Shown: positions 1-56,270 of the stretch, piece after piece
Layout: every line of letters begins with the position of its first letter
Numbering within the stretch: the stretch's first letter is position 1
IMG/VR virus record: IMGVR_UViG_3300024239_000017
DNA: 64,000 nucleotides
Direction: 5' to 3' (one strand)
Origin: a virus
The notes under the pieces: model-generated
Databases searched by the model: none
What the model was told of the DNA's origin: nothing
The model's input: the letters and a program-made list of their open reading frames with translations, nothing else
Position numbers and translations under genes: made by a program

Positions 1-19
1 CCTGATAAGACTATAATTC

Positions 20-93
20 ATCCACATAGCTCAATTGAATAGAGCGATTGGTTACGACCCAATAGGTTTCAGGTTTGAGTCCTGATGTGGATA
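20..93 (+). tRNA. tRNA-Arg(ACG)
   Basis: Cloverleaf: ATCCACA/TGTGGAT acceptor, ATTGG-TTACGAC-CCAAT anticodon arm. Confidence 0.9.
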
Positions 94-100
94 CAATAAT

Positions 101-173
101 GTTCAGGTAGCAAAGCGGTTAATGCACTTGACTGTTAATCAAGGTGGCGTGGGTTCGAATCCCACCCTGAACG
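101..173 (+). tRNA. tRNA-Asn(GTT)
   Basis: GTTCAGG/CCTGAAC acceptor, CTTGA-CTGTTAA-TCAAG, TTCGAAT loop. Confidence 0.93.
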
Positions 174-243
174 CAAAAAATGCGTATCGAAAGATAAAGT
201 TCAGAAGTACAATGAACAAATAGGTTAAGCGCATCCTATAATT

Positions 244-316
244 GCCTCGGTAGCTCAGCAGGTAGAGCACTACACTGAAGATGTAGGTTGCATCGGTTCG
301 ATTCCGATTCGAGGCA
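244..316 (+). tRNA. tRNA-Phe(GAA)
   Basis: GCCTCGG/TCGAGGC, CTACA-CTGAAGA-TGTAG. Confidence 0.93.
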
Positions 317-386
317 CATATATTAGACTGTTAATAATTCATAGTCCTTACCTTAAGGAAAATATGCGTAGAATTATATTTTAAAA

Positions 387-420
387 GCCGTAGTTGAGCA
401 GGCGGTGAGCTCAGGAGACT
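387..420 (+). pseudogene. 5' half of a tRNA gene, truncated at the anticodon loop
   Basis: GCCGTAG-TT-GAGC..GCTC D arm-A-GGAGA-CT, then non-tRNA sequence; lies just upstream of the HNH gene. Confidence 0.55.
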
Positions 421-458
421 CGAACAAGTAAAACTTTATTAATAATTTTGTTTATATA

Positions 459-490
459 TTTGTATAAGTGGTTCGAATTTCGTATATTTG
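459..490 (+). promoter_or_regulatory. Bacteroidota-type -33/-7 promoter
   Basis: TTTG(459)-N20-TATATTTG(483-490); ATG 4 nt downstream. Confidence 0.75.
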
Positions 491-494
491 TATT

Positions 495-1112
495 ATGAAA
501 GATAAAATATTAGAACTACGACTCCAAGGTAAATCTTACAAGGAAATTGAAAGAGAATTAGGATGCGCAAGAAGTACAATAGCGTTTCATTGTCAAAGAC
601 ACGGTTTAAATAAACCCGTTAGAGATAATCATCCTAAAGGTAAAAACGCAGTTAGAAAAATAAAAGAGATTAAATTATGTGAAAACTGTGGTAAGGAAAT
701 TTTAAACAAGGAAAATAAAAAAGTATGTTCTTTGAAGTGTTCAGGAGAGCTGACTGGTAAAAATAAGTATAATAAATTTATACTCGATTGGAAAAACGGG
801 AATGTATCTGGAGGAAGAGGAGATAGTTCTGGTCATGGATGTGTGTCGGTGCATGTTAGAAAATATTTATTTAAGAAATATGATAATAAATGTGCGGAGT
901 GTAATTGGAGTGAAGTAAATCCATATACTCAAACAATACCTTTAGAGGTGGAACATGTTGATGGAAACTCGTTAAATCATAAAGAAGAAAATTTAATATT
1001 ACTTTGTCCAAATTGTCATTCTCTAAAAGCAGGACATAGTACATCAAAAGGAAATGGTAGAAGATATTACAGAGAAAAATATCATAAAGAAAAAAGAGAT
1101 AGTAACCCGTAA
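495..1112 (+). CDS. HNH homing endonuclease (N-terminal HTH, Zn ribbon, HNH)
   Basis: CAECNW...LEVEHVDGNSLNHKEENLILLCPNCH; start moved to ATG 495. Confidence 0.85.
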   Translation: MKDKILELRLQGKSYKEIERELGCARSTIAFHCQRHGLNKPVRDNHPKGKNAVRKIKEIKLCENCGKEILNKENKKVCSLKCSGELTGKNKYNKFILDWKNGNVSGGRGDSSGHGCVSVHVRKYLFKKYDNKCAECNWSEVNPYTQTIPLEVEHVDGNSLNHKEENLILLCPNCHSLKAGHSTSKGNGRRYYREKYHKEKRDSNP

Positions 1113-1180
1113 TTGGTAGCGGTGCGCTCTGTAAAAGCGTTGTCATTTTGGCTCTGGGGGTTCAAGTCCCTCCTATCTCA
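1096..1180 (+). tRNA. tRNA-Tyr(GTA)
   Basis: GAGATAG/CTATCTC, CTGTAAA loop, long variable arm; overlaps the HNH stop codon. Confidence 0.88.
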
Positions 1181-1312
1181 CAATAACTACTGATTACAAG
1201 TTAATCATTTAGAAGTAGTTTACTCTGTGAAGTTGTAGTACCCACTGTTTAGAGGTCTCATTGAGATGCGGCAGCAATGATACAGTACTTAGGTATTGAA
1301 GTTGGGGAAATT

Positions 1313-1383
1313 CGAGTGTAAGTTGTAATGGTTGCATCCGTATCTTGGACATACGAGGAGAGGTTCGATTCCTATACATTCGA
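1313..1383 (+). tRNA. tRNA-Pro(TGG)
   Basis: CGAGTGT/ACATTCG, CGTAT-CTTGGAC-ATACG; weak D and T stems. Confidence 0.75.
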
Positions 1384-1427
1384 CAATTCAAGTATAAAAC
1401 TCTGTGAAGTCTTAGAGTCTTGAAAAT

Positions 1428-1499
1428 TCCCCTATAGCAGACAGGTGTGGGCAACACTCTTTTAAAGTGTGAGGTTAGGTTCGATTCCTAATGGGGGAA
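1428..1499 (+). tRNA. tRNA-Lys(TTT)
   Basis: TCCCCTA/TGGGGGA, ACACT-CTTTTAA-AGTGT. Confidence 0.85.
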
Positions 1500-1557
1500 C
1501 AAATGTAGAAATAAGTTGTATATGGCTCTACAGGAGAACGTTATCCACATAGAAACC

Positions 1558-1628
1558 GCCTTGATGATGTAACGGTAGCGTCTTGTTTTTACATAGCGAT
1601 GGTGGGGGTTCGATTCCCTCTCAAGGTA
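1558..1628 (+). tRNA. tRNA-Val(TAC)
   Basis: GCCTTGA/TCAAGGT, TTTACAT loop. Confidence 0.82.
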
Positions 1629-1633
1629 CAAAA

Positions 1634-1730
1634 AGATTTATATTGGCGGAATTGGTATACAGCGATTGAAGGCAAGAGCTCAGGTAATTCACTAGAAATG
1701 GTTACAGGTTCGAATCCTGTATATAAATCT
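1634..1730 (+). ncRNA. tRNA-like element: Leu-type D arm and canonical T arm, no normal anticodon loop
   Basis: GGCGGAATTGGTATAC D arm, ACAGG-TTCGAAT-CCTGT, AT-rich acceptor, about 17-nt loop in place of the anticodon. Confidence 0.6.
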
Positions 1731-1738
1731 TTTAAATT

Positions 1739-1811
1739 GGGGTTACATGTACCAAGGCAGGCGAGAATGATTTGCAATCAATCTGGGAGGGTTCGATTCC
1801 CTTTGGCTCCA
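1739..1811 (+). tRNA. tRNA-Ala(TGC)
   Basis: GGGGTTA/TGGCTCC with G3:U70, TTTGCAA loop. Confidence 0.82.
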
Positions 1812-1815
1812 CAAT

Positions 1816-2295
1816 ATGAGTAAAATAAGAGATAAAGAGTTATTAGAAAAAGCAATTAAAAAAAGTTTATGCAAAGCAGAAGTTTTAACCTTATTAGGAT
1901 TAAAAGCTTGTGGTAGCAATTATAAAACTTTTGATAAATATGTTTCAATGTATAATCTAGATACTTCCCACTTTACAGGACGTGTATGGAATACAGGTAA
2001 GAGATTTAGAGAATTTGGCAAGAAATTAAACATTGAAACTATTCTTGTAGAAAATTCTACTTATACAAATACTAATAGACTAAGAATTAGACTCATAAAT
2101 GAAGGATTAAAAGAAGAAAAATGTAATAATTGTGGATTGACACATTGGTTAGATAATAAAATTCCTTTAGAACTAGACCATATAAATGGTATAAACAATG
2201 ACCATAGGATTGAAAATCTAAGATTACTTTGTCCTAACTGTCATGCGTTAACTTCAACGTACAGAGGTAAAAATATAAATGCGTTCATGGTGTAA
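1816..2295 (+). CDS. HNH homing endonuclease
   Basis: CNNCG...LELDHINGINNDHRIENLRLLCPNCH. Confidence 0.9.
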   Translation: MSKIRDKELLEKAIKKSLCKAEVLTLLGLKACGSNYKTFDKYVSMYNLDTSHFTGRVWNTGKRFREFGKKLNIETILVENSTYTNTNRLRIRLINEGLKEEKCNNCGLTHWLDNKIPLELDHINGINNDHRIENLRLLCPNCHALTSTYRGKNINAFMV

Positions 2296-2360
2296 CTGGT
2301 AGCCACGCAACACTTAAAATGTTGTTCTTCGGAGTCTGGGTTCGACTCCCAGTGGACGCA
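2281..2360 (+). tRNA. tRNA-Leu(TAA)
   Basis: GCGTTCA/TGGACGC, CAACA-CTTAAAA-TGTTG; overlaps the HNH stop codon. Confidence 0.9.
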
Positions 2361-2365
2361 CAAAC

Positions 2366-2446
2366 GTCTCTATGGTGAAATTGGTAGTACACGCTAGTCT
2401 TAGAAACTAGTGCTTCGGCGTGAGGGTTCGACTCCCTCTAGAGACA
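2366..2446 (+). tRNA. tRNA-Leu(TAG)
   Basis: GTCTCTA/TAGAGAC, CTAGT-CTTAGAA-ACTAG. Confidence 0.93.
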
Positions 2447-2462
2447 CAATAAAGAGAGAGAA

Positions 2463-2978
2463 ATGGGAAACAAAGTTAACTACAAACGATGTTTGGAATT
2501 GAATTCAGCATATTTACCTACAAAAATAATAGACTCCGATAGAGCATATATACTGTATTTAAAAGGTAATGCTGAAATTATAGAAGAACATCCAGAAACA
2601 TTTGGACTAGTAAATCCTGACTATGAGATATATAGACCATCTATAATTAGAGTAAAGAAATTTTTTCAAGGAAAAATACATAATGTAAAATTTTCTAGAG
2701 AAAATGTTTTTAAAAGAGATGATTATACATGTGTTTATTGTGGTAAAAGGGATAAAAAAGATTGCACATTAGATCATGTTCACCCTGTTAGTAAAGGTGG
2801 AAAAGATAGTTTTGAAAATTGTGTAACAGCATGTAAAAAATGTAATAGTGAGAAAGATAACTTAACAGTATATGAATGGGGAAGAGAACATCCAAACCCA
2901 AAAAGACCTCACTTCCTTATGTTGTTAAATAATTTAGAACATATTCCAGAAGAATGGAAAAAGTTTTTACTTTGGTAA
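2463..2978 (+). CDS. HNH endonuclease, McrA-like family associated with tRNA arrays
   Basis: SRENVFKRDDYTCVYCG...TLDHVHPVSKGG...NCVTACKKCN. Confidence 0.88.
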   Translation: MGNKVNYKRCLELNSAYLPTKIIDSDRAYILYLKGNAEIIEEHPETFGLVNPDYEIYRPSIIRVKKFFQGKIHNVKFSRENVFKRDDYTCVYCGKRDKKDCTLDHVHPVSKGGKDSFENCVTACKKCNSEKDNLTVYEWGREHPNPKRPHFLMLLNNLEHIPEEWKKFLLW

Positions 2979-3028
2979 AATATAGAGGGTTGGGTGACGA
3001 ATAACCTGAGATAAAAAGCACATTTTAT

Positions 3029-3115
3029 AGAGGTGGTCTGAATGGACGAAGAGCTAGTCTTGAAAACTAGTAGGTCGTTAATAGCGATTTGAGGGTTCGA
3101 TTCCCTTCGCCTCTT
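3029..3115 (+). tRNA. tRNA-Ser(TGA)
   Basis: AGAGGTG/CGCCTCT, CTAGT-CTTGAAA-ACTAG, long variable arm. Confidence 0.88.
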
Positions 3116-3121
3116 CAATTT

Positions 3122-3208
3122 GGAAAACAGTCGAATATTGGTTTGTCGTGCTTCACTGCTAATGAAGTCCTTATAAAAGAGGTGAGAGTTCAATTCTCTC
3201 GTTTTCCG
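3122..3208 (+). tRNA. tRNA-Ser(GCT)
   Basis: GGAAAAC/GTTTTCC, CTTCA-CTGCTAA-TGAAG. Confidence 0.88.
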
Positions 3209-3279
3209 CAATAATATTAAAACTTTTAATACTGAAAATCAACAGATTATAAAATAATATTAATTTTTTTATTAATATA

Positions 3280-3311
3280 TTTGTATAATTCAAATTTTTT
3301 TCGTATGTTTG
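3280..3311 (+). promoter_or_regulatory. Bacteroidota-type -33/-7 promoter
   Basis: TTTG(3280)-N20-TATGTTTG(3304-3311). Confidence 0.8.
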
Positions 3312-3322
3312 CAAAATAAAAT

Positions 3323-3395
3323 CGCGGGGTAGAGCAGTAGGTAGCTCGCAAGGCTCATAACCTTGAGGTCGATGGTTCGAGTCCATCCCACGCTA
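3323..3395 (+). tRNA. tRNA-fMet(CAT), initiator
   Basis: CGCGGGG start with unpaired C1, CAAGG-CTCATAA-CCTTG. Confidence 0.9.
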
Positions 3396-3417
3396 CAAAG
3401 ATAAAAATAATAAAAAA

Positions 3418-3507
3418 ATGAAAAATACTAACATTGTACATATTCAGACGATAGGTAGAATTGAATGTCAAGGACATTCAATAATGGGAGTATTATACGT
3501 TTTTTAA
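3418..3507 (+). CDS. Putative 29-aa leader peptide MKNTNIVHIQTIGRIECQGHSIMGVLYVF
   Basis: A-rich start context; 3' end is complementary to the 5' arm of the downstream terminator. Confidence 0.6.
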   Translation: MKNTNIVHIQTIGRIECQGHSIMGVLYVF

Positions 3508-3543
3508 TAATTTTTTAGTTAAAATAAGGTTAAATGTATTACA

Positions 3544-3580
3544 GACTCCCATTCATTAATTTGATTGGGAGTTTTTATTA
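3544..3580 (+). terminator. Intrinsic terminator/attenuator hairpin
   Basis: ACTCCCA...TGGGAGT followed by TTTTATT; alternative pairing with AATGGGAGT at 3483-3491. Confidence 0.7.
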
Positions 3581-3581
3581 T

Positions 3582-3653
3582 TCCGACATCGCATAACGGT
3601 ATTGCACTGGCGTTGTAACCCAGCTTTTCTCGGTTCGAATCCGAGTGTCGGAT
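3582..3653 (+). tRNA. tRNA-Thr(TGT)
   Basis: TCCGACA/TGTCGGA, GTTGTAA loop (C31:C39 mismatch). Confidence 0.75.
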
Positions 3654-3660
3654 CAAAAAT

Positions 3661-3739
3661 ATTGCTGTGCCCGAGAGGTTGAAGGGGTCGCTCTGCAAAA
3701 GCGATAATATCACCGCAGGTTCGAATCCTGTCAGCAATT
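3661..3739 (+). tRNA. tRNA-Cys(GCA)
   Basis: ATTGCTG/CAGCAAT with U73, TCGCT-CTGCAAA-AGCGA. Confidence 0.9.
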
Positions 3740-3745
3740 CAAAAC

Positions 3746-3817
3746 AGATCTATGGTATAAAGGATATTACATTTGATTTTGACTCAAATAATCTAGGTTC
3801 GATTCCTAGTGGATCTA
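3746..3817 (+). tRNA. tRNA-Gln(TTG)
   Basis: AGATCTA/TGGATCT, TTTGA-TTTTGAC-TCAAA. Confidence 0.9.
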
Positions 3818-3834
3818 CAATAAATTTATTAAAA

Positions 3835-3987
3835 ATGGCGGGCAAATCAAAAACCAGACTAGTAATGGAGGAATTTAAAAAAGGACAATTGAACGTAGGT
3901 AAAAGTCCTAAGAAAGTAACCTCTAGAAAACAAGCAATCGCTATTGCACTTTCAGAACAGAAAAGAGTTAATAGCAAGAAAAAATAA
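3835..3987 (+). CDS. Small basic protein, DUF6496-like
   Basis: VMEEFKKGQL..GKS.KKVTSRKQAIAIALSE; start at ATG 3835. Confidence 0.7.
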   Translation: MAGKSKTRLVMEEFKKGQLNVGKSPKKVTSRKQAIAIALSEQKRVNSKKK

Positions 3988-3990
3988 TAT

Positions 3991-4064
3991 ACTACTATAT
4001 CTTAATTGGTTAAAGAACTACGCTGATACCGTAGAGTATGGTTGTTCGAATCAACCTAGTAGTA
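3991..4064 (+). tRNA. tRNA-Ile(GAT)
   Basis: ACTACTA/TAGTAGT, CTACG-CTGATAC-CGTAG. Confidence 0.88.
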
Positions 4065-4308
4065 CTAAGCCTTTCACGTTTGGGTAAGCACGCGGAGCAG
4101 AATGGTAACATTCTGAAACCCTTAAAACAACCGAATTAGGTAAATTGTGCCGTGATAGGATGGGCTGCCTATCAAGTTAATTTATAATCAATTAGGGCTT
4201 TTGATTTGCGGTGGGTACTACATTACACCTGTTGCACAAGAGGACAACCGTTTAGACAACCAGTCAAAAAGCAGATGATAATGTCATGGTGTAGTATTGA
4301 TTATACAT

Positions 4309-4384
4309 GCAGGTGTCGCATAGTGGTCGATTGCGCTAGACTTCCAATCTAGAATTACCGTGGGTTCGAATCCCACTACCTGCT
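4309..4384 (+). tRNA. tRNA-Gly(TCC)
   Basis: GCAGGTG/TACCTGC with U73, CTAGA-CTTCCAA-TCTAG. Confidence 0.92.
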
Positions 4385-4390
4385 CAACAT

Positions 4391-4461
4391 GGTGTTAATA
4401 GTGTAATGGTAGCACGAATGTCTGTGAAACATTTAGACAGGGTTCAAATCCCCTTAACACA
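4391..4461 (+). tRNA. tRNA-His(GTG)
   Basis: Encoded G-1, GTGTTAA/TTAACAC, AATGT-CTGTGAA-ACATT; A73. Confidence 0.85.
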
Positions 4462-4498
4462 CAAAATTAAAAATTTTAACAAATTTTAACATTATTTA

Positions 4499-4530
4499 TT
4501 TGCATATGTCAAAATTTTTTCGTATGTTTG
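4499..4530 (+). promoter_or_regulatory. Bacteroidota-type promoter (repeated 32-bp unit)
   Basis: TTTGCATATGTCAAAATTTTTTCGTATGTTTG; near-identical copies at 5686 and 44365. Confidence 0.82.
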
Positions 4531-4534
4531 CACT

Positions 4535-4849
4535 ATGAAAAAATTCAATAAGAATAAAAATAGTCATTTTACGAAGAACAGTAGTAAAATAACTGACAAA
4601 AGTGTTTTAAGAAATATTGAAAAAATTATTTCCGAAAAAGCAGGAAGTGTTTCATATTTCTTCTTAGAAGAAAGAATATCTAATATTCATTCAAATTCTA
4701 TTAAGGATATGAAGGAGATAAAAAATAAATCAGTATTACATGTTAATTTAACAAGAGAAAGTATTGAAGATAAAACTCCTTCTGAAATCATGTATATGTT
4801 TGAAACAACTAAATGGGATTTAGGTGCAAATTATTTTGTAATAAACTAA
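4535..4849 (+). CDS. Hypothetical protein
   Basis: ORF directly after a promoter. Confidence 0.6.
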   Translation: MKKFNKNKNSHFTKNSSKITDKSVLRNIEKIISEKAGSVSYFFLEERISNIHSNSIKDMKEIKNKSVLHVNLTRESIEDKTPSEIMYMFETTKWDLGANYFVIN

Positions 4850-4958
4850 TTTTGGGATATACAAACCTAGGATAAATATATCCAATCGTGTCTGTCACTA
4901 ATGGTGACACAAGTAAATTAACACCTGTACACGAGGGTTAAACGTTTACTTTTTAATT

Positions 4959-5030
4959 GGTCTATTCGTCTATCGGTTAGGATACAAGATTTTCACTCTT
5001 GCGAGGCGGGTTCGATTCCCGCATAGACTA
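4959..5030 (+). tRNA. tRNA-Glu(TTC)
   Basis: GGTCTAT/ATAGACT, CAAGA-TTTTCAC-TCTTG. Confidence 0.92.
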
Positions 5031-5247
5031 CATCTTTAAAATACCTGTGTTGGTTTTGTTCCACATATAGAGATTGTTTTCGCACATTAAATGTAAACAA
5101 AGTAGTATATGACGGTTAGAGTTTCTCGGTGAAACTTAGCTTTCTGGCGATGAGAATGCCTTATTTGCTTTAAAATAATAAAATAACACACAGAGATGCC
5201 GTGGGAGGAGGGTGTGGTAACCTTAGGCGAAAAGTCCTCCCTTTAAC

Positions 5248-5320
5248 ACCGATATAGTTCAATTGGTAGAACAACTCCCTCATCAGGAGAAGGTTGTAGG
5301 CTCGAATCCTGCTATCGGTA
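5248..5320 (+). tRNA. tRNA-Met/Ile2(CAT), atypical
   Basis: ACCGATA/TATCGGT, CTCC-CTCATCA-GGAG; C37 and a CTCGAAT T loop. Confidence 0.7.
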
Positions 5321-5469
5321 CAAAGTAAACAAGTATAAAAGGTATAGAGCGTAATGGCTTGCCGAGAAATATCCAGTAAGAGTAACCGATATACAGAGTT
5401 CTCCGAGGGCAGTCTAGAACAGTAAGGGCTGTACGGTTAATACCACTGTTGACCTCTGTTTACTATCTT

Positions 5470-5541
5470 GTCCCTATAGCTTAATGGATAAAGCGATGGT
5501 CTTCTAAACCATTTATTCAAGTTCAACTCTTGATAGGGATT
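5470..5541 (+). tRNA. tRNA-Arg(TCT)
   Basis: GTCCCTA/TAGGGAT, ATGGT-CTTCTAA-ACCAT. Confidence 0.88.
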
Positions 5542-5548
5542 CAACTAT

Positions 5549-5621
5549 TGCCTCATAACTCAGCGGTTAGAGTAGTTCACTCATAATGAAAAGGTCGTGG
5601 GTTCGATTCCCTCTGGGGCAA
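5549..5621 (+). tRNA. tRNA-Met/Ile2(CAT)
   Basis: TGCCTCA/TGGGGCA, TTCA-CTCATAA-TGAA. Confidence 0.82.
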
Positions 5622-5653
5622 CAAGCATAAATTTTAACATTTTTAATAAAGGT

Positions 5654-5685
5654 AAGACACATTTTTCGGAAATGTGTCTTTTTTA
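5654..5685 (+). terminator. Intrinsic terminator ending the tRNA cluster
   Basis: AAGACACATTT-TTCGG-AAATGTGTCTT followed by a T tract. Confidence 0.85.
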
Positions 5686-5717
5686 TTTGCATATGTCAAA
5701 AATTTTTCGTATGTTTG
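5686..5717 (+). promoter_or_regulatory. Bacteroidota-type promoter (repeated 32-bp unit)
   Basis: TTTG(5686)-N20-TATGTTTG(5710-5717). Confidence 0.82.
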
Positions 5718-5721
5718 CAGT

Positions 5722-6786
5722 ATGAAAAATAAAGTAAATATAACAGCACATAGTTTGTCACCACAAGGAGATGAACTTATTACAGTATTGGCTACATTTC
5801 CTAGAATTATATTAGCCGAAATTAATACACATAGAATGTTAAGTAAAAATACTTCTTCGAGTAGAGCAATTCCATTTAAAAAAATGGTTGAAAGTGTTCA
5901 AAACAATCCTTTTATTCCTATTGCTTGGCAGAAAGAACATACTGGAATGCAAGGATATGAATATATTACTGATAAAGAACAATTAGAAGCATTAGAAAAA
6001 ATATGGTTATATAGTAGGGATGAAGCTGTAAGAAGTGCAAAAGCTATTAGTTCAGGCACTTTTGAATTAGACTTAGGAATTAAATATAACTATGGATTTA
6101 AAGCTACTAAACAACTAGCTAACAGACTTCTTGAACCATTTATGTGGACTACTATGTTAATTACAGGTAGTAGAGAAGGTTGGAATAATTTTTTTAATTT
6201 GAGATGCCCTCAGTATAAAATCCATCAAGGTACGTATAAAAGTAAGAAAGAAGCTTTAGAATACGGTCTTTCAAATGGTGAATTAAAAAATTGGAGTGAT
6301 TTGGATTGGTTACAAAACAATGAAGGTCACGCAGAAATTCATATAATGGATTTGGCTGAAAAGATTTATGATGCTGTAAACGAATCTACACCTAAGCAAC
6401 TTAAAGCAGGTGAATGGCATATTCCTTTTGAGGATGAAATCAGAAAGCTTGATATACCAGAATCGGTCAAAAGTGAATATTATAAAAATGGTATTGAACC
6501 ACATTCAGCGGTAAAAGATATTTTAATTAAGGTCTCGACTGCAATGTCCGCACATACATCTTATACTGTAGTAGGAAACGAGCCTATTAAGTCTATAGAG
6601 AAGTGGATTGAGTTACATGATAAGCTAATTGGTTATGACCCACCTCACTCTTCACCAATGGAACATTGTTGTTTATGTGTTACAGAAGAAGAATATAATA
6701 GTTCATTTAAAGGACAGGAAAAAGGGTGGTTTAGAAACTATAAAAGTTTTAAATCTTATAGACAAATAATTGAAGAATCATTATAA
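5722..6786 (+). CDS. thyX: Flavin-dependent thymidylate synthase
   Basis: ThyX motif THRMLSKNTSSSR, KQLANRLLEPF, H.SP.EH; start at ATG 5722. Confidence 0.85.
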   Translation: MKNKVNITAHSLSPQGDELITVLATFPRIILAEINTHRMLSKNTSSSRAIPFKKMVESVQNNPFIPIAWQKEHTGMQGYEYITDKEQLEALEKIWLYSRDEAVRSAKAISSGTFELDLGIKYNYGFKATKQLANRLLEPFMWTTMLITGSREGWNNFFNLRCPQYKIHQGTYKSKKEALEYGLSNGELKNWSDLDWLQNNEGHAEIHIMDLAEKIYDAVNESTPKQLKAGEWHIPFEDEIRKLDIPESVKSEYYKNGIEPHSAVKDILIKVSTAMSAHTSYTVVGNEPIKSIEKWIELHDKLIGYDPPHSSPMEHCCLCVTEEEYNSSFKGQEKGWFRNYKSFKSYRQIIEESL

Positions 6787-6816
6787 TTTTGTACTATAAT
6801 ACAATAATATAAAACT

Positions 6817-7617
6817 ATGAAAAGTGGTATATATAAAATAGAAAATAAAATAACTAAAGATATTTATGTAGGTAGCAGTGTTAATTTAAGTAATAGAAAA
6901 TCTAGACATTTTAAAGATTTAGAAAAACAAATTCATCATTCAATTATTTTACAAAGAGCTGTAAATAAATATGGAATTGAAAATTTTGATTTTATAATTA
7001 TTGAAAAATGTAATAAAGATGATTTATTAAATAGAGAACAATATTATTTAGATACATTACAACCTTTATATAATATATTATCTAATGCAGGAAATTCAAT
7101 AGGACATATTGTATCTGAAAAAACTAAAGAAAAACTTAGACAATATGCTATTCAAAATGATATAAAACCTCCAGAAACAACTTGGAAAAGTAAGCAAGAA
7201 AAAGTTTACATGTTAGATAAAAAAACATTAACAGTTCTAAAAGAATTTGATTCTTTATCTTCGGCATGTAGATTTATTGGAAAAAATGAAACGTTTGTAT
7301 CTACTATTTCTGCGTGTTGTACTAATAAAAGATTTTCTGCATTTGGATATAGATGGACATATTCTATTACAGATATTTTTAATTTAAGGAATAAAATTAA
7401 AAAAGATCCTTGGAATAAAGGGATAAAAATAGATAATAAAAAATCCAAAAAAGTATTTCAATACACCAAACAAGGAAAATTTATAAAAGAATGGAAATCA
7501 GTTAAAGAAGCAGAATCTTTTTACGGTAAAGGTATATCTAACTGTGCATTAGGAAAAAGTAAATCTTCAAATGGATTTATTTGGAGGTATTTCATTGATA
7601 ATAATATTGAATTATAA
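6817..7617 (+). CDS. GIY-YIG homing endonuclease with NUMOD1-type repeats
   Basis: SGIYKI...YVGSS...REQYY...YNI; C-terminal VFQY..G.FIKEW.S..EA repeats. Confidence 0.9.
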   Translation: MKSGIYKIENKITKDIYVGSSVNLSNRKSRHFKDLEKQIHHSIILQRAVNKYGIENFDFIIIEKCNKDDLLNREQYYLDTLQPLYNILSNAGNSIGHIVSEKTKEKLRQYAIQNDIKPPETTWKSKQEKVYMLDKKTLTVLKEFDSLSSACRFIGKNETFVSTISACCTNKRFSAFGYRWTYSITDIFNLRNKIKKDPWNKGIKIDNKKSKKVFQYTKQGKFIKEWKSVKEAESFYGKGISNCALGKSKSSNGFIWRYFIDNNIEL

Positions 7618-7618
7618 A

Positions 7619-8041
7619 ATGTCAAAAGTAAAAAAATCATTTAAAGTTATAATAGCAGGAAGTAGATCTTTTTCAAATTATAACCTTTTAGAAGAAAAAT
7701 GTAATAAGATTTTGACCTCAATATCTGACGAAATTTGGATTATCTCAGGTTGTGCTAAGGGTACCGACCTTTTAGGTGAGAAGTACGCTAAAAACAAAGG
7801 ATATTATCTCATGGAGTGTCCTGCTCCGTGGGATGACATCCAAAATAAACCGCAAAACCAAATAGGTATTACTAAAAACGGTGATAAATATTGGAAATTA
7901 GCAGGAATGCACAGAAATGAGACCATGGCTAAAGAAGCAGACGCTTGTATAATATTTTGGGACGGTAAATCTACTGGTACAAAGAACATGATAAACCTCG
8001 CAAAAAAATATAAATTAAAACTAAGAGTAATAAATATATGA
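7619..8041 (+). CDS. SLOG family protein (DUF2493/YspA-like)
   Basis: VIIAGSRSF, ISGCAKGTD, RNETMA, FWDGKSTGTKNMI. Confidence 0.8.
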   Translation: MSKVKKSFKVIIAGSRSFSNYNLLEEKCNKILTSISDEIWIISGCAKGTDLLGEKYAKNKGYYLMECPAPWDDIQNKPQNQIGITKNGDKYWKLAGMHRNETMAKEADACIIFWDGKSTGTKNMINLAKKYKLKLRVINI

Positions 8042-9960
8042 AAAATTATATATACGATTTAGAAACATACCCTAATCTATTCTGCGGTGTTTTTAATACT
8101 GAAGGTAAAGAAACTGTTTTTGAAATAAGTGCTAGAAAAAATGATTATGAAAAACTTTTAGAATTTTACACTGATAAAAATATAAAATATGCTATAGGTT
8201 TTAATAATGTTAGATTTGACGCTCAAATTCTACATTATTTAGTATCCAATAAAGAATTATTTATAAAAAAACAAGGATCTGAACTCGTAAGTTTAATTTT
8301 TCTTTTTGCTCAAAAAGTAATATCATCAACTTATGATGGTGGTTTTCCACCATATGCTGAATGGAATTTTGAGGTAAAACAAATTGATTTGTTTTTAATA
8401 AACCATTATAACAATAAAAACAAAATGACAAGTTTGAAGTGGATTGAATTTAGTATTAACCATCCAAAAGTACAAGATCTACCTTATAAATTTGACAGAC
8501 CTTTAAAATCAAGTCAATTTGATGAAGTTATTGAATACTGTAAGAACGACGTTAATGCTACAAGAAAGTTCGCAGAGGAATGCAGAGATTTAATAAAACT
8601 TAGAATTTCTCAAGACAAGCAATATCCTAAACTTAGATTGTTGAATAAACCAGATTCTAGCGTAGGAGAACAATTGTTTTTACATTTCATGTCAGAATCA
8701 ATGGGTATTGATATTAAGGAACTTAGAAAAATGAGAACTCATAGAGCTCCGCTTCCTGTAAAAGACTTAATACTACCTTATATTAATTTTAAAACATCTG
8801 AATTTCAAAAAATATTGGATTGGTATAATTCATCTATGACAGGTGGTTTGGAAAACAGTGTAATGTTTGCTGGAATAGAGTTCGTATTTGGAGAAGGTGG
8901 AATACATGCCAGTTGGGAAAATAAAATATTCGAAGCAGATTCTGAATATGATATACTCGATATTGACGTAACGTCATTCTATCCAAATTTAGCAATTGTA
9001 AATAATTTTAGACCTGAACATTTAGGAGACGCGTTTTCTCGCGTTTATAAAAATCTATTCTTAGAAAGAAAAAAATATCCTAAAGGAAGTGTTGAGAATC
9101 TATCGTATAAAATTATCTTAAATGGATCTTATGGAAAATTTGGAGACGAATATTCTTTCTTATATGATAAAAAAGTAATGAACCAGATTTGTATTAATGG
9201 TCAATTATTAATTGCAATGTTATGTGAAAGATTATCATTTATTGATAGTGTCACTATTATTCAAGCAAACACAGACGGTGTAACAATTAAAGTTAAAAAA
9301 TCTAAAAGAAACGAAGTAGAAGATACATGTAAGAGATGGGAAAAACTCACTAGTCTTGAATTAGAATATGCCGAGTATAAAAAAATGGTAATTAATAATG
9401 TAAATAATTACATGGCTCAGTATACAGATGGTAAAATAAAAGATAAAGGAGCATCATATATTGTTAATCCAGACCATCATAAAAATAAATCTCAACGTAT
9501 AGTACAAATAGCATTAAGAAAATACTTTTTTGAAGGAATACCTATTAGAGAAACAATAGAAAATCATTTAACCACTACGGAAAAAGGATCTGAATGGAAT
9601 GAGAAAAAGCAAAAATACGAAGTACCTTATTACGGAATATATGACTTCTGTATAGGTAGAAAGGTAAAATGGAATCAGCGTTATGTTATTTTAAAAGGAA
9701 TGGAAGATATAAAAATTAATGAAAAAGTAATTAGATATTTCATTACCAAGGATAAAGCTACAATGATGAAGATGTATGACGACGGCAGAGTAGAATCTGT
9801 GAATAAGGGATATAACGCTAAACTATTTCAAAACTATGAAGAATTAAAACCAGAAGATTATGGTGTTAATTACGAATATTATATAAACGAATGTTATAAA
9901 ATAACAACACCTTTTGATAATGGAAATCCTAAACTAGGAAAACAATTATCTTTATTTTAA
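8038..9960 (+). CDS. Family B DNA polymerase with 3'-5' exonuclease
   Basis: YDLETYP (ExoI), GFNNVRFD, YCKND, DVTSFYPN, KIILNGSYGK, NTDG. Confidence 0.93.
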   Translation: MKNYIYDLETYPNLFCGVFNTEGKETVFEISARKNDYEKLLEFYTDKNIKYAIGFNNVRFDAQILHYLVSNKELFIKKQGSELVSLIFLFAQKVISSTYDGGFPPYAEWNFEVKQIDLFLINHYNNKNKMTSLKWIEFSINHPKVQDLPYKFDRPLKSSQFDEVIEYCKNDVNATRKFAEECRDLIKLRISQDKQYPKLRLLNKPDSSVGEQLFLHFMSESMGIDIKELRKMRTHRAPLPVKDLILPYINFKTSEFQKILDWYNSSMTGGLENSVMFAGIEFVFGEGGIHASWENKIFEADSEYDILDIDVTSFYPNLAIVNNFRPEHLGDAFSRVYKNLFLERKKYPKGSVENLSYKIILNGSYGKFGDEYSFLYDKKVMNQICINGQLLIAMLCERLSFIDSVTIIQANTDGVTIKVKKSKRNEVEDTCKRWEKLTSLELEYAEYKKMVINNVNNYMAQYTDGKIKDKGASYIVNPDHHKNKSQRIVQIALRKYFFEGIPIRETIENHLTTTEKGSEWNEKKQKYEVPYYGIYDFCIGRKVKWNQRYVILKGMEDIKINEKVIRYFITKDKATMMKMYDDGRVESVNKGYNAKLFQNYEELKPEDYGVNYEYYINECYKITTPFDNGNPKLGKQLSLF

Positions 9961-44364: not shown

Positions 44365-44396
44365 TTTGCATATGTCAAAAAATTTTTGTATGTTTG
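44365..44396 (+). promoter_or_regulatory. Bacteroidota-type promoter (repeated 32-bp unit)
   Basis: TTTGCATATGTCAAAAAATTTTTGTATGTTTG. Confidence 0.82.
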
Positions 44397-54911: not shown

Positions 54912-56270
54912 ATGATAACAGGAAAAGATTTAATAGCATTAGGATATATTCCTAATAAGCTATTTGGGGACGCAATAAAATATATAAATACATATGAATT
55001 ATCTACAGAAGAAATCAAATCTTTTCTAGATGAATTCTTTAAACCAACTCCTACTTTGGAGCCTTTTAAAACTCCTGTAGATTATATTCTTAATATTGAA
55101 GTAGAAAATCAAGACGAAGTAAACAACCTTAGTGCCATACACAATACTATGCAAGTCTTAATGAAGACTCCTACAGTGTTAACAGGTGTAATAATGCCTG
55201 ACGCTTGTCCTACAGGAGAGCCTGGTCAGATACCTGTAGGTGGTGTTGTAGTAACAGAAAATGCTATACACCCATCTATGCACTCAGCAGATGTATGTTG
55301 TTCAGTTATGACTTCTGATTTAGGTAAAATTGATCCTAAAGAAGTATTAGATATAGCATTTGCAACCACACATTTTGGTGCAGGCGGTAGAAAAGAACAT
55401 GGTGGTTGGGGAGATTTACTATATGATAATAATTACTTAGTAGAAAAAATACTAGGTAATTACTATACAAAAGATTATATAGAAAAAGCAGCAAAACATT
55501 TAGGAACTCAAGGTGATGGAAATCACTTTTTATTCGTAGGTATTTCTGAAAAAACAGGTAATACTCATATAGTAACACATCATGGTTCTAGAGGATTTGG
55601 TGCGGCAGTATATAAAAAAGGAATGGACACAGCAGAAAAGTATAGAAAAGAGCTTTCTCCAAATACTTTAAAGAAAAATGCTTGGATTCCTTATGATAGT
55701 GTAGAAGGTAAATTATATTGGGAAGCTCTTCAAATAGTAAGAGAATGGACTAAACTTAATCATGAATCACTTCATAATAGAATTATAAATAAATTAAAAA
55801 TTCAATATGAAAATAGATTTTGGAACGAGCATAATTTTGTTTTCAAAGACGGTAATAAATTCTATCACGCTAAAGGTGCTACACCATTAGAAGATAAATT
55901 TGTACCTGATTCACAAAATGGATTAAGATTAATACCTTTGAATATGTCACAACCTGTTTTGGTTGTAAAAGGTGAAGCTACAGATACAAATTTAGGATTT
56001 GCACCTCATGGTGCTGGTAGAAATGTATCAAGAGCAGAACATCATAGAAGACACGCTAACAAAACTGACGAACAAGTTTTTAAAGAAGAAACAAAAGGAC
56101 TTGATGTTAGATTTTATACAGGTAAAATAGATATATCTGAGTTACCTAGTGCATATAAAAATGCAGAAAGTGTACAAAGACAAATAGAAAAATTTGGACT
56201 AGGTACTGTTGTGGATAGAATAATGCCTTATGGTTGTATAATGGCAGGAAAACAAGAAAAATTTTATTAA
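54912..56270 (+). CDS. rtcB: RtcB RNA ligase
   Basis: MPDAC, DVCC, GNHF, HHGSRG, HNF, HGAGR, ELPSAYK. Confidence 0.92.
   Translation: MITGKDLIALGYIPNKLFGDAIKYINTYELSTEEIKSFLDEFFKPTPTLEPFKTPVDYILNIEVENQDEVNNLSAIHNTMQVLMKTPTVLTGVIMPDACPTGEPGQIPVGGVVVTENAIHPSMHSADVCCSVMTSDLGKIDPKEVLDIAFATTHFGAGGRKEHGGWGDLLYDNNYLVEKILGNYYTKDYIEKAAKHLGTQGDGNHFLFVGISEKTGNTHIVTHHGSRGFGAAVYKKGMDTAEKYRKELSPNTLKKNAWIPYDSVEGKLYWEALQIVREWTKLNHESLHNRIINKLKIQYENRFWNEHNFVFKDGNKFYHAKGATPLEDKFVPDSQNGLRLIPLNMSQPVLVVKGEATDTNLGFAPHGAGRNVSRAEHHRRHANKTDEQVFKEETKGLDVRFYTGKIDISELPSAYKNAESVQRQIEKFGLGTVVDRIMPYGCIMAGKQEKFY

Follow-up and report, generated by a model that had tools for sequence, protein, structure and literature searches.

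Leader-peptide attenuation is familiar from the amino-acid operons of enterobacteria, in which a short leader ORF and a terminator lie just before the regulated genes, as in the thr (Thr, Ile) and ilvGMEDA (Ile, Leu, Val) leaders, trpL and hisL. The 5′ strand of the antiterminator sits at the end of the leader, a hairpin lies within the leader, and ribosome stalling at cognate codons leads to read-through. The thr and ilvGMEDA leaders sense more than one amino acid, and the 1:2 anti-antiterminator pairing is a trait of the trp type, not of every attenuator. Attenuation also reaches the decoding apparatus: the pheM leader of pheST controls phenylalanyl-tRNA synthetase, sensing a single amino acid by a stretch of consecutive Phe codons, in a chromosomal setting and upstream of a protein gene. 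In T-box riboswitches, the choice between terminator and antiterminator hangs on the state of a specific tRNA, which is bound directly in its uncharged form, without a ribosome or an ORF. Phages, for their part, can carry whole arrays of tRNA genes, and in those of T4 and T5, small ORFs, homing endonuclease genes, promoters and terminators lie between the tRNAs. What are these tRNA genes for, and how are they controlled? Decades of debate have produced proposals that include codon compensation, a supply of replacements for host tRNAs that are degraded, and escape from anticodon nucleases. We know of no codon-matched leader or antiterminator in the T4 and T5 tRNA clusters, and literature searches found none; nor, to our knowledge, is there an earlier case of tRNA genes under feedback control by their own function. 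No description of leader-peptide control of tRNA genes was found in the literature searched, the coverage of which is incomplete.

Here we describe what appears to be that design, known for amino-acid operons, applied to the tRNA genes of a phage. The locus lies in a 64,000-nt stretch of viral DNA (IMG/VR record IMGVR_UViG_3300024239_000017), which as a whole is called the window below. As in the enterobacterial leaders, a short leader ORF is followed by a terminator just before the genes to be regulated, the 5′ strand of the antiterminator falls at the leader end, a hairpin lies within the leader, and stalling at cognate codons is predicted to give read-through; as in thr and ilvGMEDA, more than one amino acid would be sensed. 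Unlike the enterobacterial leaders, the phage unit would regulate tRNAs rather than biosynthetic enzymes, such that the decoder is restored and not the amino acid; its leader samples eight or nine amino acids, one to four times each, with no runs; such units lack a conserved 1:2 pairing, and many are probably leaderless mRNAs; and the element is phage-borne, in a Bacteroidota-type host, with no kinship in sequence or in Rfam. With pheM it would share control of a component of the decoding apparatus, from which it differs in regulating tRNA genes and in using a multi-codon checklist. With T-boxes it would share a terminator/antiterminator choice that hangs on the state of specific tRNAs; the T-box specifier loop and motif are absent here, and there is no Rfam match.

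From nt 1 to ~5.7 kb, the window is a plus-strand array of 23 tRNA genes with HNH endonuclease genes between them, tRNA-Arg being the first gene at the window start. Other products of the window include a DNA polymerase (8038-9957; best match among GenBank phages at most 37% identity), a ThyX-like protein, an RtcB ligase, a NAPRTase and a DUF6496 protein. Subsurface metagenomes and many wastewater metagenomes contain near-identical DNA, and four metatranscriptome runs contain parts of the stretch, as contigs only and possibly through DNA carry-over. The features that matter for the argument are the following:

3280 to 3312, + strand: Bacteroidota-type promoter (−33 element TTTG at 3280-3283, −7 element TAtgTTTG at 3305-3312; predicted start ~3317)
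3323 to 3396, + strand: tRNA-Met (CAT), called by ARAGORN and by Rfam (tRNA, 59.5 bits), with a mismatched 1:72 pair
3418 to 3507, + strand: leader ORF of 29 codons (ATG 3418, TAA 3505-3507) using 16 different amino acids
3460 to 3482, + strand: P1, a 10-bp hairpin inside the leader ORF (codons 15-22)
3483 to 3491, + strand: region 2, the putative 5′ strand of the antiterminator, AATGGGAGT, exact complement of 3545-3553
3495 to 3539, + strand: spacer helix (3495-3502 with 3532-3539) of the predicted nascent-transcript fold, enclosed by the antiterminator
3545 to 3581, + strand: predicted intrinsic terminator (3545-3551 with 3566-3572 and a 3-bp inner helix, extending to 3545-3555 with 3562-3572)
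3582 to 4462, + strand: putatively gated genes, tRNA-Thr, tRNA-Cys, tRNA-Gln, a 50-aa DUF6496 ORF (3835-3987), tRNA-Ile, tRNA-Gly and tRNA-His
4499 to 4530, + strand: internal promoter of the same class as that at 3280, preceding a 104-aa ORF (4535-4849)
4959 to 5622, + strand: distal tRNAs Glu, Met, Arg(TCT) and Met, whose codons are sampled by the 29-codon leader
5654 to 5680, + strand: strong terminator closing the tRNA cluster, a 12-bp stem followed by a T-run

A first-pass annotation, made from the letters of the window, had described most of this anatomy, and its statements about the sequence are all correct: the ORF, its 16 amino acids, the exact 9-nt complement, the terminator and the order of the tRNAs. 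The promoter that it placed at 3280 is a real site, better read as belonging to the Bacteroidota −33/−7 type. The site fits the consensus TTTG / TAnnTTTG of that type; a sigma-70 promoter was considered for the same position and rejected, as a sigma-70 scan gave no convincing plus-strand promoter and the Bacteroidota motif fits the site better. Near-identical copies stand at 4499, 5686 and 44365, with a further match at 459, and the motif has 13 matches in the window against 5.9 expected, a count that no shuffle reached. The same motif lies upstream of orthologous units. This promoter type suggests that the host of the phage is a member of the Bacteroidota. In promoters of Flavobacterium johnsoniae, the G of the −7 element is at −5,(PMC6847099) a geometry that places the start near 3317, six bases 5′ of tRNA-Met; a G at −9, which the −7 element of the 3280 promoter has, is rare in that organism.(PMC6847099)

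Which genes would an attenuator at 3418-3581 govern? The initiator-like tRNA-Met at 3323-3396, so called for its mismatched 1:72 pair, would be transcribed before the attenuator and hence escape its gating; a tRNA-Met in this position is present in the window and in three orthologous units (L222, L030, L033), degenerate in two (L026, L034) and absent from five. Beyond the terminator, neither a promoter motif nor a terminator was found in a scan of 3582 to 4462. The distal Glu, Met, Arg and Met tRNAs can, by prediction, be reached by read-through and also from the promoter at 4499, which bypasses the attenuator; because this internal promoter can feed them, the strictly gated set would be Thr to His. 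Additionally, transcripts of the upstream half of the cluster may enter the leader/terminator unit.

The leader and terminator are linked by RNA complementarity. Region 2, a purine-rich stretch directly after P1 and a near copy of the 3′ arm of the terminator, is complementary to the 5′ arm, ACTCCCATT at 3545-3553. The pairing of the native 3′ part of the ORF with the 5′ arm was equalled by only 1 of 1000 shuffles of that part. The terminator hairpin has a predicted stability of −17 kcal/mol, and its U-tract (3573-3581) adjoins the 5′ end of tRNA-Thr (3582-3654); a simple terminator scan missed this hairpin because its apical part exceeds the loop limit of the scan. The 185-nt spacer between tRNA-Met and tRNA-Thr has a folding z of −5.75 (−4.6 with a second shuffle set), and no other inter-tRNA spacer tested in the cluster fell below −2.4. 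A search with cmscan against Rfam (window 1-8000, E up to 1) returned tRNA-type matches only, and nothing in 3397-3581; ARAGORN and Rfam likewise gave no support for a T-box, a known leader of the His, Thr, Leu or Trp families, a degenerate tRNA or a small RNA.

The first-pass annotation had held that region 2 and the 3′ arm compete for the 5′ arm in mutually exclusive pairings, and the predicted folds bear this out. For nascent RNA that lacks the 3′ arm, the minimum-energy fold in the window contains P1 and a helix between region 2 and the 5′ arm (−27 to −28 kcal/mol); once the 3′ arm is present, the terminator state is preferred (−31 to −32 kcal/mol). Since the 5′ arm is paired with the ORF before the 3′ arm exists, the antiterminator should form first unless region 2 is occupied. 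A spacer helix is also predicted within the antiterminator, where it overlaps the final codons of the leader together with the stop codon; this helix is seen for the window alone, and the spacer sequence is not conserved. A pairing like the 1:2 anti-antiterminator appears only in the full-length fold of the window and is absent from the consensus. Thus, with nascent folds that give the antiterminator in the absence of a ribosome and with no conserved 1:2 pairing, the untranslated state is predicted to be ON.

Relatives of the window were collected through its polymerase: contigs encoding polymerases 65-99% identical to that of the window had their upstream regions read for tRNA order. Together with the window they make a set of 11 orthologous units from wastewater phages, one of which, the JGI contig L082, was found by pattern. 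In that metagenome pattern scan, 68 of the 69 matches were attributable to chance, L082 being the sole true orthologue; two IMG/VR matches of the same pattern were rejected as orthologues, as neither had a downstream tRNA and the one that was read lay in a coding region. Other routes to relatives of the leader found none: a distant DNA search of GenBank phages with 3210-3660 matched only the tRNA-Met part, and scans of IMG/VR with the exact leader core and with the window polymerase gave no match. The tRNA order common to the relatives is ...Leu, Leu, Ser, Ser, (Met) / Thr, Cys, Gln, Ile, Gly, His, Glu, (suppressor), Met, Arg, Met.

All 11 units have an ORF that starts with ATG and runs to 25-31 codons, a promoter of the same type, and a hairpin with a U-tract that adjoins tRNA-Thr. 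The leader region is a mosaic among relatives. For example, L222 (99% polymerase identity) has a leader close to that of the window and a tandemly duplicated terminator, and in L026 (98%) the leader differs greatly and the promoter is followed by an inserted HNH gene. P1 is kept in 10/10 folded orthologues, with several pairs changed on both sides and with loop indels that are all of 3 nt, and an RNAalifold consensus recovered P1 and the terminator, with double changes in 7 of 12 pairs. Because the MAFFT alignment misaligns the start and the terminator in some rows, antiterminator pairs were judged from folds of the individual sequences. In nascent folds that start at P1 and stop where the 5′ arm ends, the core of the 5′ arm pairs with the same ORF site in all ten. 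The group of the window has region 2 of GGGAGU type facing an ACUCCC 5′ arm, and in one subclade both terminator arms (CCUCUC/GAGAGG type) and region 2 have switched together; duplex energies of region 2 with the 5′ arm are −10.6 and −10.8 kcal/mol within groups versus −8.7 and −7.4 across them.

Covariation in homologs, which had been suggested as a check on the attenuator, is found: P1 carries double changes and region 2 switches with the terminator. In L029, L030 and L033 the region 2 pairing is short (5-6 bp) and no better than in shuffles. Shuffle tests were strong for the window, L024, L025 and L082 and moderate for three orthologues. With region 2 placed 25-33 nt upstream of the stop-codon end in four orthologues, a ribosome parked at the stop would miss it, and for these units transit timing would have to act. 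As the orthologues are related, their support is not independent, and the strong independent support comes from other phages.

Such units do exist in other phages. The independent set comprises 10 distinct units plus one duplicate contig: two units come from ThyX relatives, which lack this tRNA cluster, and eight from IMG/VR, where a search with a narrow promoter-plus-start pattern gave nine more matches in eight distinct units. The leaders of these units share no common peptide motif, only residues that correspond to their downstream tRNAs. For example, in one ThyX relative a leader rich in Gln, Tyr, Glu, His and Phe precedes tRNAs Glu, Tyr, Gln, Phe and His, and in the other a leader rich in Asn, Gln, Tyr, Phe and Glu precedes a Tyr-like tRNA followed by Asn, Gln, Glu and Phe; an IMG/VR unit places Arg, Leu, His, Glu, Gln and Pro residues before Pro, Glu, Gln, His, Leu and Arg(ACG) tRNAs, and other IMG/VR units have Leu- and Ser-rich leaders before Leu, Leu, Ser, Ser. 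In these independent units, as in five of the orthologues, the −7 element has its G five bases 5′ of the A of the ATG, so that the leader would be a leaderless mRNA, beginning with its start codon.

The relatives of the window have, furthermore, a second leader, before tRNA-Asp, the first tRNA of the cluster. It is built in the same way: promoter, 37-39-codon ORF, internal hairpin, region 2 copy and a terminator adjoining tRNA-Asp. The counterpart belonging to the window probably lies just outside it, to judge from the 99%-polymerase relative L222. The 10 unrelated units and three of these tRNA-Asp (L1) leaders make up 13 further units, each with a predicted terminator, and the terminators have nine different arms in all. 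In 13/13, a copy of the terminator 3′ arm is embedded in the ORF, to which the 5′ arm is paired in the nascent fold; in a duplex test, at most 58 of 500 shuffles reached the observed energy in 11 units, and 70 and 149 did so in the other two. The attenuator architecture and polarity that the first-pass annotation proposed for one locus thus hold, in predicted structure, over the 11 orthologues and these 13 further units.

What would such a leader sense? In the window, 18 of the 28 residues after the start are Thr, Cys, Gln, Ile, Gly, His, Glu, Met or AGA-encoded Arg, and these nine residue types are the specificities of the ten tRNAs downstream of the leader. The 10 residues outside this set are the N-terminal Lys, Asn, Asn, a single Val and a single Ser, and a five-residue C-terminal tail. 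Eight of the nine types (all except Met) fall within codons 4-17, which by inferred footprint geometry are far enough upstream for a stalled ribosome to leave region 2 free. Among the orthologues, leader positions are conserved at a His (~7-8), a Cys-Gln pair and a Gln-Ser-Thr, the C-terminal tails vary freely, and residue replacements between close orthologues stay mostly within the downstream tRNA set (e.g. Ile to Thr, Gln-Gly to Arg-AGA). The residues of the tRNA-Asp leader are Lys, Asn, Leu, Phe, Tyr, Ser, Pro, Val, Ala, Asp and Trp, which are those of the first-half tRNAs; in other words, the two leaders of the relatives hold complementary amino-acid sets, one for each half of the cluster. 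The first-pass annotation had taken the absence of a run of any amino acid as a pointer to general stalling, a step that does not survive this comparison: the leader reads as a checklist of the amino acids of its downstream tRNAs, and a second leader covers the complementary set.

Statistical tests bear on the same match. When the 21 amino-acid categories were split exhaustively into 12 + 9 (293,930 ways), 11, 2 and 243 splits matched as well as the real one in L029, L031 and L026, respectively; the two-leader partition has a permutation p of about 1e-5 to 1e-3 in these three genomes. The same composition test on the window leader alone is modest (p = 0.023). Across 12 units of leader and tRNA set, the match is 0.445 for cognate pairs versus 0.283 for non-cognate ones, a difference reached by 0 of 100,000 label permutations. 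The match extends to codon families of Arg: leaders before tRNA-Arg(ACG) use CGY codons in four of five units, the fifth having no Arg codon, and leaders before tRNA-Arg(TCT) use AGA or AGG, with one CGT exception in L222. Because strict codon-level assignment is unreliable at truncated loci (L030, L033, L034, L082), and ACT and GGT are left unassigned by narrow wobble, the sets were compared at the level of amino acids.

We consider it likely that the region is a ribosome-mediated leader-peptide transcription attenuator, through which transcription of the tRNA block depends on the speed at which cognate codons are decoded. A leader written mostly in the amino acids of its downstream tRNAs implies that the phage probably makes these tRNAs only when their codons are read slowly. 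From the observed anatomy, its conservation and covariation, and the codon-to-tRNA match, we infer a cycle that includes leader translation, polymerase pausing, termination and a response to tRNA shortage. Transcription from the Bacteroidota-type promoter would produce the initiator-like tRNA-Met and then the 29-codon leader, within which P1 would form; as a candidate pause hairpin, P1 may hold the RNA polymerase until a ribosome arrives, and it would stack on the antiterminator. A ribosome moving smoothly would reach the leader end and cover region 2 and the spacer helix during transcription of 3545-3581; the terminator would then fold and transcription would stop exactly at the 5′ end of tRNA-Thr. 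If the ribosome lagged at the early Thr, Ile, His, Gln, Gly, Arg-AGA, Glu or Cys codons (4-17), or if no ribosome were present, region 2 would be free to pair with the emerging 5′ arm, and the polymerase would continue into Thr-Cys-Gln-Ile-Gly-His and beyond. The new tRNAs would speed decoding and the gate would close, amounting to negative feedback on tRNA supply.

Could the leader instead report the status of translation in general, as in the sensor of translation damage that the first-pass annotation proposed? On such a reading, any slowing or loss, for example through ribosome shortage or abortive-infection shut-off, would be registered and the composition match would be a by-product. The nascent fold is already the antiterminator when no ribosome is there, so any loss of translation would open the gate; the leader has no single-codon runs; and the RtcB RNA ligase of the phage hints at tRNA-damage repair, all of which are consistent with a general sensor. 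A general sensor would not be expected, however, to have two leaders of complementary composition, a cross-match over 12 units or specificity for Arg codon families, nor would its substitutions tend to remain within the downstream set, and we regard this explanation as improbable.

Less probable still is that the tRNA sub-operons are simply separated by a constitutive (leaky) terminator and processing hairpin, with no regulatory role for the ORF and the complementarity. Phage tRNA clusters are rich in hairpins and promoters, the region 2 pairing is weak in the three orthologues named above, and contigs from RNA libraries bridge the terminator (3391-3712, 3405-3685 and 3528-3745), reflecting either some read-through or DNA carry-over and giving no ends, strand or level. 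A passive element does not account for a 25-31-codon frame that survives heavy divergence with indels of 3 nt only, for a region 2 that follows nine different terminator sequences, or for the composition statistics, which speak against it. That the ORF encodes a functional micropeptide, a small regulator or something toxin-like, with the terminator merely ending its gene, we judge to be very unlikely. The conserved positions in the orthologues are what one would look for in a peptide, yet the conserved Cys-Gln pair is encoded at the top of the covarying P1, so that conservation is explained at the level of RNA; the variable C-terminal tails and the lack of a common motif among unrelated units also count against a peptide function.

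If the attenuator reading is right, then the phage gauges decoding speed codon by codon and replenishes exactly those tRNAs that run short, and leader-peptide attenuation extends from amino-acid supply to decoder supply. Recurring as it does in many uncultured Bacteroidota-type phages, the design is probably a common rule of large-phage genome organisation. The units are self-contained at ~170 nt, and they could be used inside cells as compact reporters of how available chosen tRNAs are.

More speculatively, and as a proposal to which we give rather less credence than to its contrary, the leaders may be phage-borne, per-operon sensors of tRNA supply that double as counter-defence: the loss or outrunning of tRNAs, whether by the host or in the course of phage takeover, would switch on only the matching block, alongside the RtcB ligase. 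The switch could also report stop-codon recoding. Where relatives carry an amber-suppressor tRNA, most of their leaders end in TAG, and in three of the four such relatives read, the frame opened by TAG read-through extends up to or into the 5′ arm of the terminator.

Stop-codon recoding could perhaps be tied to the attenuator switch, a possibility raised by the leaders that end in TAG and by the reading frames that continue beyond them. A suppressor tRNA(CTA) is carried by five related phage contigs (L024, L025, L029, L031 and L033). Of the leaders that end in TAG (L024, L029, L031, L033 and L026), 4/5 belong to relatives with an amber-suppressor tRNA inside the gated block, i.e. the tRNAs behind the terminator; of the four leaders ending in TAA that could be scored, three belong to relatives in which no amber-suppressor tRNA was seen. 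Continued in frame past the leader stop, the read-through ORF of L024, L031, L033 and L026 ends at or inside the 5' arm of the terminator.

Population variants also fall within the leader, where RNA-library contigs (metatranscriptome assemblies) from two wastewater runs carry A3474G, T3482C and A3484G. The first is synonymous and retains its pair in P1, the hairpin within the leader ORF, as G-U; the second replaces Ile with Thr, a replacement that is still inside the downstream tRNA set; and the third replaces Met with Val and retains the antiterminator pair as G-U.

Rearrangements are evident in close relatives. In L222 (99% polymerase identity to the window), the attenuator terminator is present as a tandem duplicate at 5270-5353, with two near-identical copies of the hairpin and U-tract 5' of tRNA-Thr, and region 2, the 5' strand of the antiterminator, could pair with the 5' arm of either copy. 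In L026 (98% polymerase identity; region 4431-4907), an HNH-type gene is inserted between the attenuator promoter and a tRNA-Met so degenerate that ARAGORN no longer recognizes it; mosaicism is much stronger in the tRNA region than in the polymerase.

The window also holds an RNA ligase gene, a predicted tRNA with a weak tRNA-like match behind it, and ORF-poor spacers:

54912-56267, RNA ligase gene of the RtcB family (Pfam, E = 2.6e-33)
1637-1729, 93-nt tRNA called by ARAGORN, its anticodon four bases long (aagg)
1739-1814, weak tmRNA-like or tRNA-like match 3' of the 93-nt tRNA (Rfam, E = 0.014)
4066-4308, 5032-5247 and 5322-5469, ORF-poor inter-tRNA spacers, relatively GC-rich (38-41%)

The ligase gene co-occurs with at least 23 tRNA genes in this phage, and its presence would fit a role in mending cleaved tRNAs. 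The three spacers have no Rfam match and ordinary folding energies (z -0.3 to -1.1), and may be decayed tRNAs or remnants of inserts.

Finally, near-identical copies of a promoter-like element (TTTG, ~21 nt, TAtgTTTG) recur across the window:

459-490, before the HNH gene
3280-3311, before the attenuator unit
4499-4530, before a 104-aa ORF
5686-5717, before a ThyX-like gene
44365-44396, before a distal gene

The copies at 4499 and 5686 are each preceded by a TTTTAACA-type repeat, immediately upstream of the former and ~45 nt upstream of the latter.
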